The notes under the pieces were generated by a model. That model was given only the letters and a program-made list of their open reading frames with translations, did no database searches and was not told the origin of the DNA. 37,094 nt of DNA from Candidatus Moraniibacteriota bacterium (GTDB lineage Bacteria > Patescibacteriota > Minisyncoccia > Moranbacterales > UBA11712), in assembly GCA_028695025.1 (NCBI GenBank), contig JAQVJV010000008.1:1-37094 (forward strand), given 5' to 3'. The translations under genes and the position numbers were made by a program. Shown one piece after another: positions 1,107 to 27,791 of this stretch; within the stretch, counting starts at the first letter, position 1; every line of letters starts with the position of its first letter.

Positions 1107-1844
1107 ATGGAAAATACGCTCGAAAACCAGCTGAAAAAAGCGGGACTCACGGAAAGCGAGGCAAAGGTCTATCTCGCCTCGCTTGAACTTGGAGAAACGA
1201 ATATCAACCGGATTTCCAAAAAATCGGGCATCAAAAGAAGCACGACTTACTGGGTCATCGATTCGCTCAAAGAGAAAGGGCTGATAAGCATTCTCAAAAG
1301 AAACAAAAAAACTTTTTATTTTGCTGAAGATCCCCGGAAGATAACCTGGCAAATGGAAGAAAATTTGAAGGAAGTCGGAGCGTCAATGCCGGGTCTTTTG
1401 GCGATTGCCAATTTCATCGACAAAAAACCGTCGGTTCGTTTTTTTGAAGGGCAATCCGGCATTAAGGAAGTCTTCAAAGATACCCTTTGCCATCCCAAAC
1501 AGGAAATTCTGGCCTGGTTTCCCCGTGCGTTCGAAAGTTTCATCGATGAATATTATGTCCCGCGGCGTATCGAGAGAAAAATCTGGGTGCGGGCGATCAT
1601 GCCGGACAGCAAAAAGTCCCGTGAATTCGCAAAGGCTGAAGAAAAACAACTGCGAAGGTCGAAACTGGTTTCCGAAGAGGAATTCAACCTTGATGTGGAA
1701 ATAACTTTGTACGGAGAAAACAAGGTCGGCATCATCTCTTTTGAGGAGGAAATAGCCATGATGATCGAAAGCCGGAAAATCCACAACAGCCTCAAAAATA
1801 TTTTCGAGATTATGTGGAAATATATTCCGGATAAAAAAGCGTGA
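1107..1844 (+). CDS. TrmB-family HTH transcriptional regulator (paralog 1 of 3 in window)
   Basis: N-terminal TrmB-type winged helix (LTESEAKVYLASLELGETNINRISKKSGIKRSTTYWVIDSLKEKGLI). Alignable with the 25306 and 34454 paralogs. Sits upstream of a sugar-type ABC binding protein. Confidence 0.8.
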   Translation: MENTLENQLKKAGLTESEAKVYLASLELGETNINRISKKSGIKRSTTYWVIDSLKEKGLISILKRNKKTFYFAEDPRKITWQMEENLKEVGASMPGLLAIANFIDKKPSVRFFEGQSGIKEVFKDTLCHPKQEILAWFPRAFESFIDEYYVPRRIERKIWVRAIMPDSKKSREFAKAEEKQLRRSKLVSEEEFNLDVEITLYGENKVGIISFEEEIAMMIESRKIHNSLKNIFEIMWKYIPDKKA

Positions 1845-3399: not shown

Positions 3400-3420
3400 A
3401 TAGGTTTTGTCATTTTATTC

Positions 3421-3507
3421 TCTCCCTTTCATAAAGGGAGAGCGAGAGAGGGATTTAATATTTTTTGAAATCCCCTTTTGTTCCCCCTTTTGAAAAGGGG
3501 GAGAAAT
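3421..3507 (+). promoter_or_regulatory. three consecutive perfect hairpins in the 5' leader of the first pilin gene, the last one sequestering the GGGGGAG ribosome-binding site
   Basis: TCTCCCTTT-CAT-AAAGGGAGA (3421-3441). GGGATTT-11nt-AAATCCC. TCCCCCTTTT-G-AAAAGGGGGA (3482-3502) overlaps the SD located 7 nt before the ATG at 3511. Confidence 0.4.
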
Positions 3508-22969: not shown

Positions 22970-23030
22970 TCTTTTTTATATTTTTTTTACTGAGGATTGG
23001 AGGGTTGGGGATAACAATAAAATAATTGAA

Positions 23031-23463
23031 GTGATCAACAAAATTCCGAAACCTATAATTGAAATAATCCAAAAAATCGAAGCCGCTGGTTTTGAAGCTT
23101 TTGTCGTGGGCGGATGCGTGCGGGATTTGCTGATGGACATGGAACCAAAAGACTGGGATGTGACGACGAATGCGAAGCCGGAAGATGTGATGAAAATTTT
23201 TCCGGACAGTTTCTATGAGAATGATTTTGGAACGGTAGGGGTTAAAATCAAAAATCAAAAGTTGATAAGGAAAAAACTGAAGTCATTGAAGTGACTACAT
23301 ATCGTATCGAATCAAAATACTCTGACAAGCGGCGGCCGGATGAAGTGCGGTTTGCGAAAACGCTCGAGGAAGATTTGGGAAGGCGTGATTTCACGATTAA
23401 TGCGTTGGCATTGAAAATCAAACCTCACCCCGACCCTCTCCCCGCCAAAGGCGGGCAGGCTTA
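23031..23463 (+). pseudogene. duplicated, frameshifted 5' fragment of the CCA-adding enzyme gene ending inside a MITE copy
   Basis: 23031-23440 is ~90-95% identical to 26172-26640 (MINKIP...FEAFVVGGCVRDLLMDMEPKDWDVTTNAKPE...). It lacks the ~90-nt KDTGAQK...EITEVVEV segment. +1 frameshift in the A-run at ~23270. Stop codon lies inside the repeat element. Confidence 0.7.
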
Positions 23464-23558
23464 GTAAGGAGAGGGAGGCGTCAAGTTGAACTCATTATTG
23501 GCAAAACTGATCGCCTTCTCCTTTATAAGGAGAAGGAGGGATGAGGTCGATGAGGTCG
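23423..23558. mobile_element. MITE-like palindromic element, copy 1 (inverted orientation, far end degenerate)
   Basis: Starts with CCTCACCCCGACCCT. Contains CCCTCTCC..GGAGAGGG (with a nested CCGCC-AAAG-GCGGG insertion) and CCTTCTCCTTTATAAGGAGAAGG hairpins. AGGGATGAGGTCG is the reverse complement of copy-2 CGACCTCATCCCT. Spacer is homologous to the copy-2 spacer in reverse. Confidence 0.55.
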
Positions 23559-23969
23559 AAAAATAAAAAAAGCCCGCAAGCAGTTTTGCTCACGGGTCGG
23601 ATTCTCCGCTCAACGAGTCCGCGAATGATCCATGAACTCGAGAAAGCGGAGAAGCGATGCTTGTTTCCCTTTCTTCCCAAACCGTTTGTCTGGGGCGTAG
23701 TTTTTCGGAGCCGGGTTCAACTAATCCCGTTGATCTCACTCCTTTCCTGATCTATACCCCCTACCTGTGGCTGGGATTTTCAGGGAAAACAAGGCGCTTC
23801 TCCCTCTGAATCCACTTTCCAAAAAGAAAATGAATTCGGATAGAGAAAGCAGGCGATGGATATTTTTTGAAAGACCATCCTTCCACTCAACGAGCTCGCG
23901 AACAATTTCGCAAACTCGAGAAAGTGGGGGAACGCAGTGCATTGAAAGCGTTCCCCGAAAAATTAGTGG

Positions 23970-24952: not shown

Positions 24953-25170
24953 ATGTTTGGATTTAAGGATTATATGTCTTTCGGAATTTTTCGGTCTTTC
25001 AGCTTAACAGGGAATTATAGCAAGAAAATAGGGAAAAGTCAATAAAGCGAGAAAACGAATAAGTCAAAATATGGCTAATATAAAGCAAGAATATGAGATA
25101 TATAATAAATTCATCAAAAATATTGACTATGTGGCAAAAAGGGTGTAGAATAGAAATAGACTTTCTCGAA

Positions 25171-25296
25171 CCTCACCCCGACCCTTTTCGACCTCATCCC
25201 TACCTTCTCCTTATAAAGGAGAAGGCGATTATTTTTACCGATGAATATATTGATGCCGAGTTCCCTCTCCTTACTAAGGAGAGGGTCAGGGTGAGG
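25171..25296. mobile_element. MITE-like palindromic element, copy 2 (complete, 126 bp, 15-bp terminal inverted repeats)
   Basis: Left TIR CCTCACCCCGACCCT. Right end AGGGTCAGGGTGAGG. Internal hairpins CCTTCTCCTTATAAAGGAGAAGG and CCCTCTCCTTACTAAGGAGAGGG. Ends 9 nt before the trmB-paralog ATG. Confidence 0.6.
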
Positions 25297-25305
25297 TTTA
25301 AAACT

Positions 25306-26166
25306 ATGAATCTCACTGAATCACTCCAGCATATCGGTCTTAATGAAAAAGAAGCCAAAGTATATTTGGCGCTTTTGCAATTGGGAAAAACGACCGCTTA
25401 TTCCGTTTCGGTGCGAAGCGGAATCAAAAAACCGACGACATACGTCATCCTTGAGCAATTGGTCAAAAAGGGGTATGCTTTTGAGATCCCAAGGGCGAGA
25501 AAACACGTCTTTTTCGCCGAATCGCCGGACAAATGTTTCGCGATGGCGCGGGAGAAGCTGGTCTTGGCGCAGGAATCACTGCCGGAACTCATGGCGGCAA
25601 GGAAGGGGCAGAGCGAGAAAGTGAATATTTCCTATTTTGAAGGGCTTGATGGAATCAGGGAGATGTACGGCAAGTTTTTTGAGTTCATGAAAAAAAAGCC
25701 GGCTTCGGAGCGAGTCTGTTCCGGTTTCTATGCCCAGGCGCGGGGTATATCCAAGGAAGTGGATGATTTTTGGAAGGAGTATAATGCTCAAGTGGTGGCG
25801 CTTGATATCAAGAGGCGGGGACTGACTCCGAAAGACGAGACATTGAAATGGTATTTCGAAAACGCGAAGAATTTGAATATTGATCTTATTGGACTACCGA
25901 AAGAAATATATGACAGCAATGTCTCATTTGAAATTTTTGACGGGTTCGTTCAGATTATCTCCTACGGTTATCTCCAAGGCACCTTGATTGAAAACCGCGA
26001 TGTGGCCGATTCATTGCGGCAGATATTTGAAATAATCTGGAATGTGTATAAGAATGAAAAAGAAGTTGAAGAAACCTCACTCCAGCCTATTAAACCTCAC
26101 CCCGACCCTCTCCTTATCAAGGAGAGGGAGCCCGGCGAAAACAGATTTATTGGCGGAAGAGGTTGA
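25306..26166 (+). CDS. TrmB-family HTH transcriptional regulator (paralog 2) with MITE-derived C-terminal tail
   Basis: MNLTESLQHIGLNEKEAKVYLALLQLGKTTAYSVSVRSGIKKPTTYVILEQLVKKGYA aligns with paralog 1 from its first codon. The ORF-track start 25093 is read-through of the MITE. The last 24 codons (..KPHPDPLLIKEREPGENRFIGGRG) are encoded by mini-MITE copy 3. Confidence 0.75.
   Translation: MNLTESLQHIGLNEKEAKVYLALLQLGKTTAYSVSVRSGIKKPTTYVILEQLVKKGYAFEIPRARKHVFFAESPDKCFAMAREKLVLAQESLPELMAARKGQSEKVNISYFEGLDGIREMYGKFFEFMKKKPASERVCSGFYAQARGISKEVDDFWKEYNAQVVALDIKRRGLTPKDETLKWYFENAKNLNIDLIGLPKEIYDSNVSFEIFDGFVQIISYGYLQGTLIENRDVADSLRQIFEIIWNVYKNEKEVEETSLQPIKPHPDPLLIKEREPGENRFIGGRG
26095..26136. mobile_element. 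mini-MITE (TIR + one hairpin, 45 bp core) at the 3' end of the trmB paralog
   Basis: AAACCTCACCCCGACCCTCTCCTTATCAAGGAGAGGGAGCCCGGC, identical to copy 4. Confidence 0.55.
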
Positions 26167-26171
26167 AACAT

Positions 26172-27791
26172 ATGATCAATAAAATTCCGCAACCAATTAT
26201 AAATATTATAAAAAAGCTCGAAGCCGCCGGTTTTGAGGCTTTTGTGGTGGGCGGATGCGTGCGGGATTTGCTGATGGACATGGAACCAAAAGACTGGGAT
26301 GTGACAACGAATGCCAAGCCGGAGGAAGTGATGAAAATTTTTCCGGACAGTTTCTACGAGAATGATTTTGGAACGGTAGGAGTGAAAGTTAAAAATCACA
26401 AAGACACAGGAGCACAAAAAGCCAAACAGAGCCTAAAAGCACAAATAACAAAGACCGAGAAGAATGGGGGCGACGAAATTACGGAAGTTGTGGAGGTTAC
26501 GACCTATAGAATAGAAAGCAAATATTCTGACAAGCGGCGGCCGGATGAAGTGCGGTTTGCGAAAACGCTCGAAGAAGATTTGGGAAGGCGTGATTTCACG
26601 ATTAATGCGTTGGCGTTGAAAGTCAAACCTCACCCCGACCCTCTCCTTATCAAGGAGAGGGAGCCCGGCTATAAAGTTGTAGATTTGTTCAATGGGCAAG
26701 ATGATTTGAAGAATAAAATAATTCGAGCTGTTGGCGACCCAAACGAGCGGTTTGACGAAGATGCGCTGAGGATGATGCGGGCGGTTCGATTTGCAATAAC
26801 ACTCACAAATGAAAACGAAGTAAAACGAATTAGAACAAATAGCGGACCGAGAAAATTGAGTGAAGAAACGCCTTTTACAATTGAGGAAAAAACCGGGAAG
26901 GCGATTGTGAAGAACGCGAAAAATTTGAAATTCATTTCCCGGGAACGCATACAAGATGAATTGAATAAAATTTTGGTTTCGGATTTTGCGGCGGAAGGAG
27001 TTGAGTTGTTGCGGGAGCTGAAACTCCTCCAATATATTCTTCCGGAGCTGGAAAAAGGATACGGCGTGGGACAAAACCGCCATCACATATATACCATCTG
27101 GGAGCACTCGATCTTGTCTCTCAAAAATTGCCCGTCAAGGAAACTTGAAGTGCGGCTGGCAACCCTGCTTCATGACATTGCGAAGCCTGATACAAAAAGA
27201 GGGGAAGGGGCGTATTCGACTTTCTATAATCACGATCACGTCGGAGCTCGATTGGTTGAAAAAATTTTGAAGCGGCTTAAGTATTCCTCGGAGATCATCC
27301 GCAAAGTGAAGTTGCTCGTGGACAACCATATGTTTTACTACAACGTTGACGAAGTGGGAGCGTCGAGCGTCCGCCGGCTGGTCCGGAAAGTCGGCCTTGA
27401 GAATATCGATGATTTGATTGACCTTCGCGTTGGAGACCGGCTGGGTTCGGGCGTGCCAAAGGCTGTCCCGTACAAACTGCGCCATTTCAAATATATGGTG
27501 GACAAGATTTCCCACGATCCTTTGTCGGTCAAAATGCTCAAAGCGGATGGGAATGATATCATGAAAGAGTTGGATATGGAGCCTGGACAGAAGATCGGGG
27601 CGATTTTGGATGTTTTGCTTTCAGAGGTGATTGAAGATCCGAAGAAAAATAGAAAAGACATGTTACTCGAGCGAGCGAGCGCGTTGAGCGGCGAGGATCT
27701 TTCCAAACTTCGTGAAATGGCGAAAGAAAAAATTGAAGAAAAAAAAGAAGAAGAGGATAAGGAAATAAAAAATAAGTATTGGGTGAAATAA
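26172..27791 (+). CDS. cca: CCA-adding enzyme / tRNA nucleotidyltransferase (Pol-beta NTase head + HD domain) carrying an in-frame 15-codon mini-MITE insertion
   Basis: [32 protein letters not shown]-domain HDIAKPDT...H..H motifs. ATG 26172 (RBS GGAAGAGG) preferred over TTG 26163. Insertion encodes KPHPDPLLIKEREPG. Confidence 0.85.
   Translation: MINKIPQPIINIIKKLEAAGFEAFVVGGCVRDLLMDMEPKDWDVTTNAKPEEVMKIFPDSFYENDFGTVGVKVKNHKDTGAQKAKQSLKAQITKTEKNGGDEITEVVEVTTYRIESKYSDKRRPDEVRFAKTLEEDLGRRDFTINALALKVKPHPDPLLIKEREPGYKVVDLFNGQDDLKNKIIRAVGDPNERFDEDALRMMRAVRFAITLTNENEVKRIRTNSGPRKLSEETPFTIEEKTGKAIVKNAKNLKFISRERIQDELNKILVSDFAAEGVELLRELKLLQYILPELEKGYGVGQNRHHIYTIWEHSILSLKNCPSRKLEVRLATLLHDIAKPDTKRGEGAYSTFYNHDHVGARLVEKILKRLKYSSEIIRKVKLLVDNHMFYYNVDEVGASSVRRLVRKVGLENIDDLIDLRVGDRLGSGVPKAVPYKLRHFKYMVDKISHDPLSVKMLKADGNDIMKELDMEPGQKIGAILDVLLSEVIEDPKKNRKDMLLERASALSGEDLSKLREMAKEKIEEKKEEEDKEIKNKYWVK
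26628..26669. mobile_element. mini-MITE (45 bp) inserted in-frame inside the cca coding sequence
   Basis: Identical 45-mer to 26091-26135. 45 nt = 15 codons, reading frame preserved. Confidence 0.55.

Follow-up and report, generated by a model that had tools for sequence, protein, structure and literature searches.

The window analysed in this study, a 37,094-nt stretch, is a contig (JAQVJV010000008.1) of a metagenome-assembled genome (MAG) of a Moranbacteria bacterium. It encodes a TrmB-family transcription regulator and a CCA-adding enzyme (cca) next to each other on the plus strand, and each of these ORFs contains an identical copy of a 45-mer. Related copies, here called triplex motifs (TMs), occur in and around these genes, and a damaged second copy of the cca 5' end is located upstream. 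The features are as follows:

3420..3453, minus strand: intergenic TM variant of unrelated sequence (TCCCTCTC / CTCTCCCT / AGGGAGAG), with 8/8 triads
23032..23441, plus strand: frameshifted, truncated duplicate of the 5' end of cca (88-89% identity with 26173-26646)
23420..23480, plus strand: TM copy with a nested extra hairpin (CCGCCAAAGGCGG...) in its first loop
23497..23560, minus strand: reversed TM variant B with its third block duplicated
25166..25185, plus strand: partial TM, consisting only of block 3' and the start of block 1, abutting variant B
25189..25238, plus strand: TM variant B (block 3' CCTCATCC, block 1 CCTTCTCC, block 2 GGAGAAGG)
25255..25299, minus strand: inverted TM copy with 89% complementarity to the 45-mer; its end is 6 nt short of the TrmB start codon
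25306..26166, plus strand: gene for a TrmB-family HTH transcription regulator (PF01978), 286 aa
26072..26087, plus strand: degenerate TM left half (AAACCTCACTCCAGCC), abutting the 5' side of the intact tail copy
26092..26136, plus strand: TM copy in the 3' tail of the TrmB-family ORF, 35 nt 5' of the cca ATG and identical to that in cca
26172..27791, plus strand: cca, an intact ORF for a class II CCA-adding enzyme of 539 aa with a C-terminal HD domain
26625..26669, plus strand: TM copy in cca, encoding residues 152-166 at a hairpin tip between motifs B and C; on the C-rich strand it reads block 3' AACCTCACCC, loop CGA, block 1 CCCTCTCCTT, loop ATCA and block 2 AAGGAGAGGG

The 45-mer (AAACCTCACCCCGACCCTCTCCTTATCAAGGAGAGGGAGCCCGGC) has two exact matches in the window, both on the plus strand (26092-26136 and 26625-26669) and 533 nt apart; zero matches were expected from 100 shuffles of the window. 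In both ORFs it is read in the same frame and encodes KPHPDPLLIKEREPG, as the original prediction had stated. The homopyrimidine and homopurine arms have a stop codon in none of the forward frames, and in the motif 3/3 forward and 1/3 reverse frames are open. Because all three forward frames are open, a frame common to both copies has a one-in-three chance. The peptide stretches predicted across motif read-through are ...NALALKVKPHPDPLLIK... or ...EREPGYKVVDLF....

The element is built of three blocks (CCCTCTCCTT / AAGGAGAGGG / GGGTGAGGTT), and its G-rich strand of 36 nt (CCCTCTCCTTGATAAGGAGAGGGTCGGGGTGAGGTT) has the order CCCTCTCCTT-GATA-AAGGAGAGGG-TCG-GGGTGAGGTT, with 10/10 triads of the allowed kind. 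Variant B differs from variant A by one shared position that is changed in all three blocks (C:G·G to T:A·A). Seven TM copies in the window score 8/8, two of them inside ORFs, and the motif is also found at non-coding positions. The computed hairpin energies indicate strong hairpins in the window (z-scores of -2.7 to -6.6). By direct reading of the sequence, the purine arm resembles a Shine-Dalgarno sequence, and the G-rich arm of the copy at 25255..25299 provides the Shine-Dalgarno-like GGTGAGG.

A literature search on the sequence led to Holder et al. (2015; NAR 43:10126, PMC4666352) and placed the 45-mer in the known BoxC/PIT/TMECO intrastrand-triplex motif class, as a member or a variant. 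It has the C-rich arm, the complementary G-rich arm and the mirror G-rich block that define the class (G·G:C, A·A:T and T·A:T triads; class II purine motif). The E. coli TMECO copies (CCCTCTCCC-TGT-GGGAGAGGG-CCG/TTA-GGGTGAGGG; Holder et al., 2015) line up with the window G-rich strand. Both have a near-identical core (CCCTCTCC...GGAGAGGG-NNN-GGGTGAGG), a second loop of 3 nt with a variable first loop, multiple copies that include inverted pairs, and no tie to known mobile elements; an association with local rearrangement may be a further common feature. The strict published TMECO pattern, CCCTCNCCC N3-6 GGGNGAGGG N3 GGGNGAGGG (Holder et al., 2015), did not match the window blocks CCCTCTCCT, AGGAGAGGG and GGGTGAGGT; the deviation is one position per block and is coordinated, as the terminal triad is T:A·T and not C:G·G in all three blocks, and the loops of 6 and 3 nt fit. 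The host here is a bacterium of the Candidate Phyla Radiation (CPR), whereas TMECO has been reported from 262 proteobacterial genomes, and 2/7 window copies and many copies in relatives are situated in frame within ORFs, whereas TMECO in E. coli is always intergenic (23/23; Holder et al., 2015). A stable triplex was found neither in double-stranded DNA nor in vivo (Holder et al., 2015), and thus selection may act on something other than the triplex itself. This E. coli sequence has also been described as a switch of the G-quadruplex-hairpin-duplex type (Kaplan et al., 2016; PMC5100583). Rfam searches of the window region and five motif-bearing loci, at gathering and permissive thresholds, returned no family, with only a sub-threshold match to whalefall-1.

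Contigs were scanned with a pattern that specified only the hairpin and ACCC. At least 120 stretches from at least eight phylum-level groups matched, and the matches listed include Armatimonadota, Bacteroidota, many Patescibacteria, Gammaproteobacteria, Elusimicrobia, Dehalococcoidia and Melainabacteria. The pattern left the remainder of the third block (CCTC) unconstrained, and this part was almost invariant among the at least 120 matches listed, in which the stems were fixed and loop 1 was free. Over all loci, a perfect 8/8 upstream third block was found in 188 of 472 pyrimidine/purine hairpins, compared to at most 6/8 on the control side, and at least 10 different arm sequences each had their matching third block, which amounts to three-way covariation. 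About 80% of the motif matches lay outside long ORFs. In-frame TMs were nevertheless found elsewhere in guaA, mnmA, M16 peptidase, rluA-like and Wzy_C genes, and across hosts the motif is read in each of frames 1, 2 and 3 and also in reverse; the control genes for in-frame inserts were IF-2, NusA and Ddl, for which too few copies were recovered. Earlier work on BoxC/PIT was reportedly carried out by Bachellier et al. in the 1990s and by Hoyne and Maher in 2000 and 2002.

The cca product contains PolyA_pol head, RNA-binding, HD and tRNA_NucTran2_2 domains. The gene is most likely essential, and the encoded CCA is missing in 7/10 tRNA genes of the window. As originally predicted, the motif-encoded residues 152-166 come directly after a conserved motif and before the next head-domain segment, YKVVDLFNGQDDL (motif C), and the insert is positioned at the tip of a beta-hairpin with motif B on one side and motif C on the other. 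Motif C is a flexibility element in class II enzymes. The alignment with orthologs that the original prediction called for confirmed an insertion: HMMER opened a gap of 13-14 residues precisely at this site when the enzyme was aligned with the solved CCA enzymes 6ibp and 1miv, and the insert is absent from the closest ortholog (P0002) and from the majority of 120 Moranbacteria orthologs. Its size needs correction, however. The 45-mer does encode 15 residues, but many orthologs of 75-78% identity keep a basal loop of 12 residues (LALKIKNSDFEI), and measured against that loop the gene has gained a net 11 codons instead of 15. In the structure model, residues 152-166 form the hairpin tip with a pLDDT of 61-70, while the remainder of the model is good. 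The surface position that the original prediction asked about is thus supported by the model, in which the insert appears to be a tolerated surface loop at a low-confidence hairpin tip.

The same and a neighbouring hairpin vary widely among orthologs. The window cca has a second insert, of low complexity and unrelated sequence, in the preceding hairpin (residues about 74-103), and the neighbouring hairpin takes in an entire extra HD domain in other orthologs. In the ortholog survey, TMs and other palindromic families were found in two cca loops, with insertion variation in two further loops. In different orthologs, the same motif in loop 3 or 4 yields PHPxPLL in frame 1 or NLTPTLS in frame 2, and orthologs P0005 and P0007 have the motif in both loops. 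PHPxPLLxKERE is found at the same loop-4 position and in the same frame in 8 other orthologs, some of which are just 64% identical, and unrelated inserts occupy the same loop in others. Motif occupancy is patchy on a neighbour-joining tree of the orthologs, the resolution of which is too poor for gain/loss counts; DNA-level dating of the insertions covered loci L005, L012, L063, L044, L082 and L203. In a comparison of hairpin density between cca and other long ORFs, the signal was swamped by parS-like palindromes and spurious ORFs. Translational bypass of 45 nt was considered, as AAAGTC and AAAGTT flank a 48-nt stretch, and was rejected: no stop follows the take-off codon, and the resulting cca loop would be shorter than in any ortholog.

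The gene upstream of cca was originally described as trmB-like, and its product does belong to the TrmB family, but it is the HTH transcription regulator and not the tRNA methyltransferase. The ORF list places its start upstream at 25093, where the extra part consists of further motif copies, and the true start is most likely the ATG at 25306. The proposal that the motif replaces the native C-terminus is contradicted by the sequence: the native end ...IFEIIWNVYKNEKEVEE is retained, the motif lies 20 codons past the conserved W, and the ORF traverses the motif to a stop 27 nt further. Beyond the conserved IFEIIW the window tail has 40 aa, compared to 10-12 aa in four close orthologs with an NVYKN/EVYKN ending (P0123, P0124, P0129 and P0134). 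The equivalent tail copy is intergenic in L005 and L012, and so the TrmB ORF of the window runs through a motif that lies between genes in these relatives. In the tails of P0121, P0130 and the window, the motif is read in three different frames, and thus it is the DNA that is conserved, not the peptide. In the window, L005 and L012, the cca start has a TM 10-35 nt on its 5' side, as it does in L203, where the TM is disrupted; the degenerate left half at 26072..26087 has the same position as the disrupted TM in L203.

The cca fragment at 23032..23441, 3.1 kb upstream of the intact gene, begins at the start codon and stops inside the TM copy at 23420..23480, and therefore matches the stretch between the two identical 45-mers. 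Its frameshift falls in an A-run, and unique genes (Fic and a response regulator) lie on its two sides. Nested and partial TM copies are present at the locus. Relatives differ in gene order around TrmB, Fic and cca; in L203, the closest relative, the tail TM is disrupted and the upstream copies are fewer. Copies of the class in E. coli have been linked to local indels and rearrangements. Because the direct pair of 45-mers flanks the cca 5' segment and the decayed copy of that segment ends in a TM, we infer from the sequence that the motif marks a rearrangement-prone locus, in which motif-associated segmental duplication or recombination may have occurred.

Taken together, the 45-mer is a structure-defined triplex-motif DNA repeat that is likely translated passively where it falls in ORFs, resides at permissive sites and may be linked to rearrangement. 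Such a TM combines an arm made up of pyrimidines, the complementary arm of purines and a third block mirroring the purine arm, such that a triad is possible at every position. Copies would arise and turn over, and some lie in ORFs of the compact Moranbacteria genome, where they would survive because they bring no forward-frame stop, change the net length by a multiple of three and lie at a permissive site such as the cca hairpin tip or the TrmB tail. The cca copy would be translated into a proline- and charge-rich, probably disordered loop of 15 residues that is neutral or nearly so, and read-through of the TrmB copy would lengthen the tail by about 28 residues. One of the two identical copies was most likely copied or converted from the other recently. 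Given that PHPxPLLxKERE is shared in frame by 8 orthologs, one old insertion might have been kept by selection instead of being a neutral passenger.

The original prediction viewed the element as a mini-MITE that behaves like the Rickettsia RPEs; on such a reading it would be a non-autonomous mini-transposon that inserts in frame and is mobilised by a transposase encoded elsewhere. The element is indeed palindromic and multi-copy, it occupies two loops of cca and is found there in both orientations, Wzy_C and other genes also contain it, and its distribution over the ortholog tree is patchy. Like RPEs, which reside in frame in unrelated housekeeping genes at fold-compatible sites (Ogata et al., 2000; reviewed in PMC10969869) and are also patchy among orthologs (PMC10969869), it is palindromic and is tolerated as an in-frame repeat within an essential gene, and this part of the comparison is retained: the insertions in unrelated genes are at structurally permissive sites. 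RPEs are, however, about 100-150 bp long, restricted to Rickettsia and read in one conserved peptide frame (PMC10969869), whereas the motif here has 36-45 nt, is found in many phyla, consists of three triad-compatible blocks and is read in at least three frames. The MITE label itself was abandoned. The inverted repeat is internal, as the two outer flanks, AAACCTCACCCCGA and AGCCCGGC, lack complementarity and hence provide no terminal inverted repeats, and the flanks of the exact copies (CCTATT/.../GAAAAC and AAAGTC/.../TATAAA) have no common direct repeat that would represent a target-site duplication. The 45-nt size is far under that of an RPE or MITE, the use of three frames leaves the peptide unconserved, and the covariation of the mirror and hairpin blocks as triads is unexplained by any transposase-end model. 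In addition, the motif is spread over many phyla among the matches listed, and TMECO in E. coli is without association with mobile elements (Holder et al., 2015). A mini-transposon is therefore an improbable source of these copies.

Other small bacterial repeats share some of these properties. QMITEs of Coxiella burnetii and other intragenic bacterial MITEs also make in-frame fusions or tails, but they are lineage-specific and have terminal inverted repeats and target-site duplications (PMC5896051; PMC10969869). The RAYT-mobilised REP/BIME elements are GC-rich imperfect palindromes of 20-40 nt with an asymmetric conserved flank, mainly extragenic and often in inverted pairs (PMC3733652), all of which resembles the motif here; the conserved flank of the latter is a mirror copy of the stem, not a tetranucleotide. 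The tag that defines REP elements in that source (GTAG or CGTC) is absent from the 45-mer, and no RAYT gene was seen in a non-exhaustive look through the window.

Alternatively, the motif could be a selected cis-acting element of the trmB-cca locus, in which a hairpin or triplex regulates cca or TrmB, by sequestering or supplying the Shine-Dalgarno-like AAGGAG/GGTGAGG or through mRNA stability, or has a role in replication or recombination. The position of a TM just 5' of cca in the window and three relatives (disrupted in L203), the further TM that ends 6 nt before the TrmB ATG, the strong hairpins and the Shine-Dalgarno-like purine arm would suit such an element. TMs are also over-represented in or just upstream of cca (9/24, compared to 13.6% of the sequence, in sampled loci that are cca-centred and non-independent), which hints at a locus-specific factor; the same sampling weakens the enrichment as an argument for regulation. 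Most cca orthologs, including the closest one, are without a TM, and PIT/TMECO in E. coli showed neither promoter nor terminator activity and was not linked to gene function (summarised in Holder et al., 2015). We consider a selected regulatory role at this locus unlikely.

On a broader and equally doubtful reading, ultra-compact CPR genomes would systematically house DNA/RNA cis elements in coding sequence as in-frame loops, with cca as a preferred or targeted host. The elements meant are triplex motifs, parS-like palindromes and a covarying two-tier hairpin, H2, which is nearly confined to cca, is found there in two different loops, has compensatory changes in 12/18 base pairs and contains the conserved stretch ...TTYCC...AATTCCTCAAAG.... 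A link between the right flank of the motif (GAGCCCGGC) and the H2 outer arm was dropped, as TMs of Capsulimonadaceae have a similar AGCCGGA flank. If this reading were true, it would imply either that a structure-directed copy mechanism homes to cca or that the cca message contains an RNA/DNA structure under selection, e.g., for autoregulation by the CCA-adding enzyme.

It is very unlikely that PHPDPLLIKEREPG is a native, adaptive loop of this cca clade, functional in contacting tRNA or a partner, for instance, with the likeness at the DNA level being secondary. The PHPxPLLxKER pattern does recur at the same position and in the same frame in 9 orthologs and adjoins motif C, but it is missing in the closest ortholog and most others, unrelated inserts occupy the same loop elsewhere, the model confidence there is low, the identical 45-mer is found in the tail of another gene 533 nt away, and the motif is present in other frames and in non-coding DNA. 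Least probable is that repeat-induced chimeric joins made the in-gene copies or the cca fragment. The window is a MAG contig, and the fragment, about 88% identical to the intact gene with its frameshift in an A-run, resembles a co-occurring strain and could in principle be a strain chimera of the assembly, but independent assemblies of other samples have TMs at the same two positions (L005 and L012), many orthologs have TMs in cca loops, the cca ORF is unbroken across the motif, and the fragment is flanked by the unique Fic and response regulator genes.

The repeat at this locus is thus relabelled, from a lineage-specific MITE to a motif class found across bacterial phyla, and the class now extends to the CPR. 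Covariation of the triads over many variants provides comparative support for a three-strand constraint, which the work in E. coli could not give because one nearly invariant sequence is found there. The motifs can reside in essential genes, in any frame, at hairpin tips and tails, where they add peptide loops or tails. They also inflate 'hypothetical' sequence motifs (PHPxPLL, LTPxLS and SPxPSP...GEG) and may mark rearrangement breakpoints, and such segments should be recognised as repeat-derived in annotation. For the enzymology of the CCA-adding enzyme, the results mean that two head-domain hairpins are extremely permissive, one of them taking a whole HD domain.

The 45-mer AAACCTCACCCCGACCCTCTCCTTATCAAGGAGAGGGAGCCCGGC is present in two identical copies (26092-26136 and 26625-26669; chance expectation, none), which both read KPHPDPLLIKEREPG in their host ORFs, as the original prediction had stated. 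The two host genes are as follows.

25306-26166, + strand: TrmB-family HTH transcription regulator (PF01978), with the ATG at 25306 as the most likely start
26172-27791, + strand: cca (class II CCA-adding enzyme; HD domain at the C-terminus), directly downstream of the TrmB gene

The TrmB-cca adjacency is a conserved gene pair in relatives. Since an encoded 3' CCA is missing from 7 of the window's 10 tRNA genes, cca most likely encodes an essential enzyme. The AlphaFold model of its product (93 orthologs as input) was good overall (pLDDT 79.6, pTM 0.74), and its best structural matches were class II CCA-adding enzymes. At least three TrmB-family paralogs were observed in the 37-kb window (1107-1844, +; 1850-2641, -; 25306-26166, +) and up to four such regulators per 20 kb in relatives.

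In the cca product, the 45-mer segment forms residues 152-166, with the conserved motif B on one side and YKVVDLFNGQDDL (motif C) on the other, which is the proposed position between a conserved motif and the next head-domain segment. Alignment with the solved enzymes 6ibp and 1miv left a 13-14 residue gap at exactly 152-166. The basal length of the motif B-to-C loop in the 120 orthologs compared (59-81% identity) is 12 residues (LALKIKNSDFEI), and P0002, the closest ortholog, is without the segment. In the structure model, the segment lies between strands 147-151 and 167-171 as the tip of a beta-hairpin, with lowered confidence there. Eight other orthologs of the 120 contain PHPxPLLxKERE at the equivalent site (loop 4), and dozens have quite different inserts in this loop. 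These alignments show the cca segment to be an insertion, and its loop gathers others as well.

The full alignment revealed four variable surface loops in the cca orthologs. In different orthologs, two head-domain hairpins, loop 3 (GVK-SEVG-VVEV) and loop 4 (motif B-to-C), contain a common repertoire of repeat-derived peptides. The present motif is read in loop 3 as PHPNPLLIKER in P0005, P0011, P0061, P0090 and L063 and in another frame (NLTPTLSLSRRG) in P0007 and P0022; at the DNA level, it was found within cca of the relatives' loci L005, L044 (two copies) and L082 (reverse orientation). The cca orthologs of 680-719 aa, P0021, P0031, P0049, P0097 and P0108 (L015:4232-6316), owe their length to a complete extra HD domain (PF01966, residues ~112-206) in the loop-3 hairpin. 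The shared repertoire and this extra domain show loops 3 and 4 to be highly permissive sites with a history of repeated occupation.

Loop 3 of the window cca (26388-26480; residues ~74-103) has its own Lys/Gln/Thr-rich insert of ~25-30 aa (HKDTGAQKAKQSLKAQITKTEKNGG), which is unrelated to the triplex motif of the 45-mer and similar to inserts of P0006 and P0072. It is not palindromic (folding energy -5.5 kcal/mol) and was modeled with pLDDT <50; 64 nt are missing at its site in an upstream cca fragment. Recurrent inserts were also observed in a loop after GGCVRDLLM (ENPPAGGP, EQELRRASRSESDRSVGP) and in one in IFPDSFYEN (STYAPPGGASADKAGS), which are likely more GC-rich repeat-derived segments (orthologs listed for these loops: P0025, P0047, P0065, P0068, P0074, P0079, P0080; P0027, P0036, P0039, P0053, P0064, P0075, P0076).

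The motif had also been thought to replace the TrmB C-terminus. TrmB orthologs with an NVYKN/EVYKN ending (P0123, P0124, P0129 and P0134) stop 10-12 residues past the conserved IFEIIW (e.g., NVYKNKNEEKNL followed by the stop), and the equivalent copy of L005 and L012 is in the spacer, downstream of the trmB stop by 33 nt and upstream of the cca ATG by 10 nt. Thus, the C-terminus was not replaced; instead, the window ORF continues across a motif whose counterparts in relatives are intergenic, with a gain of ~28 residues. The motif in the TrmB tail is read in three frames in three orthologs (KPHPDPLL in the window, TSPQPSP in P0121 and PTPTLPLLRGG in P0130). With one arm consisting solely of pyrimidines and the other solely of purines, the motif leaves every forward frame and one of the reverse frames open. 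What is conserved is the DNA motif, not the encoded peptide, and the common frame of both window copies is a 1-in-3 coincidence.

The label mini-MITE had to be given up, as neither terminal inverted repeats nor a target-site duplication was found at the 45-mer; Rfam had no family matching it. A G/C-rich intrastrand triplex motif was named BoxC, later PIT and later TMECO, and its E. coli copies are CCCTCTCCC-N3-GGGAGAGGG-CCG/TTA-GGGTGAGGG (Holder et al., 2015, PMC4666352). The G-rich strand of the window element is CCCTCTCCTT-GATA-AAGGAGAGGG-TCG-GGGTGAGGTT, its third block being a mirror of the second; each of the ten positions gives an allowed triad (G·G, A·A or T·A). Compared to E. coli, the stem end is changed from C:G·G to T:A·T, coordinated in all three blocks, and in variant B (window 25192-25225) one internal position is altered in all three blocks. 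A perfect third block was found 2-5 nt upstream in 188 of the 472 pyrimidine/purine hairpins of all fetched loci, while on the control side of the same hairpins the match was at most 6/8; at least 10 distinct arm sequences in these loci each have their own matching third block. Such coordinated changes and matched blocks argue for more than resemblance to TMECO. Because the strict published pattern is missed by one coordinated triad, the element is a variant of the BoxC/PIT/TMECO class.

A contig scan of one genome per species, with the pattern limited to the hairpin and four upstream bases, identified at least 120 matching stretches. The matches listed included Armatimonadota, Bacteroidota, many Patescibacteria lineages, Gammaproteobacteria, Elusimicrobia, Dehalococcoidia and Melainabacteria, with dozens of copies per chromosome in Capsulimonadaceae (Armatimonadota); among them (A/G)ACCTC, further upstream and outside the search pattern, was nearly invariant. 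About 80% of motif matches were outside long ORFs. In-frame copies were found in guaA, mnmA, M16 peptidase and RluA-type synthase genes of other phyla and in Wzy_C genes adjoining cca in Moranbacteria. In a cca-centred sample of non-independent copies, 9/24 perfect copies were in or just upstream of cca, whose share of the sequence is 13.6% (binomial P = 0.003).

The window contains seven perfect copies, six of them within 23.4-26.7 kb with partial copies alongside. Two further features bear on their turnover.

26072-26087: degenerate left half of the motif, immediately 5' of the intact tail copy
23032-23441: frameshifted copy of the cca 5' end, 88-89% identical, beginning at the start codon

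As the degenerate half has the position of the disrupted copy in L203, the closest relative, the intact tail copy is probably newer. Within a genome, the spacer and cca copies share their right flank (AGCCCGGC in the window vs. AGGCGG in L005), which suggests copying or gene conversion inside each genome. The cca fragment loses homology within a motif copy whose loop holds a nested hairpin; from its start and end points, the fragment therefore corresponds to the segment that the two identical 45-mers bracket. A chimeric assembly of this Moranbacteria metagenome-assembled genome is conceivable but unlikely as its source. GAGGATTGGAGGGTTGGGGATAAC (22985-23015), just upstream of the fragment, is similar to the G-rich motif half (GGAGAGGGTCGGGGTGA) and may mark the left edge of the duplicated segment as a decayed copy. 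Two similar hairpin-like stretches of ~55 nt each (~23600-23655 and ~23875-23935; ...CYCAACGAGYYCGCGAA...AACTCGAGAAAGYGG...), with no match in Rfam, lie in the 400-nt non-coding gap from the fragment to a response-regulator-like gene. Around TrmB, Fic and cca, relatives differ in gene order, which would fit the instability reported at TMECO loci (Holder et al., 2015, PMC4666352).

A second palindromic family, H2, was observed in loop 3 or loop 4 of many cca orthologs and is absent from the window. It is a two-tier hairpin of ~65 nt with invariant internal loops TTYCC (5' side) and AATTCCTCAAAG (3' side), compensatory changes at 12/18 pairs and translations TNQSPTFP...NSSKSDFS or NFSKVRPF...GQTLKNS (L003, L006, L008, L009, L011, L012, L017, L030, L037 and L067; e.g., L006:10191-10262 and L017:10425-10496). 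In 1.78 Mb of fetched DNA, a profile search gave 16 matches in cca, one at L041's truncated start, probably in cca as well, a single clear copy outside cca (L009:5377-5448, -, upstream) and a marginal match in L103 (E 0.46). Clusters of parS-like palindromes (TGTTCCACGTGGAACA or TGTTTCACGTGAAACA), of which the window has none, were observed inside relatives' Wzy_C (O-antigen-ligase-like) ORFs upstream of cca:

L018:7871-9502
L020:8139-9335
L024:6446-7303
L048:5514-7382

They are read in frame as NVPRGTL, CSTWN, MFHVE and NVSHETL, and these Wzy_C genes have in-frame triplex motifs too.

The proposed likeness to Rickettsia palindromic elements (RPEs) holds for behavior, which matches their description (PMC10969869), but not for kinship, as membership tests placed the window element outside the RPE, MITE and REP families. 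In E. coli, BoxC/PIT/TMECO is reported to be strictly intergenic and to have no relation to known mobile elements (PMC4666352), whereas the window variant is also found within ORFs. In the searchable literature, which is incomplete in coverage, this class was found described neither for CPR bacteria nor within coding regions. The element is likely a passenger repeat that forms a DNA structure, undergoes translation at sites that tolerate it and promotes local recombination.
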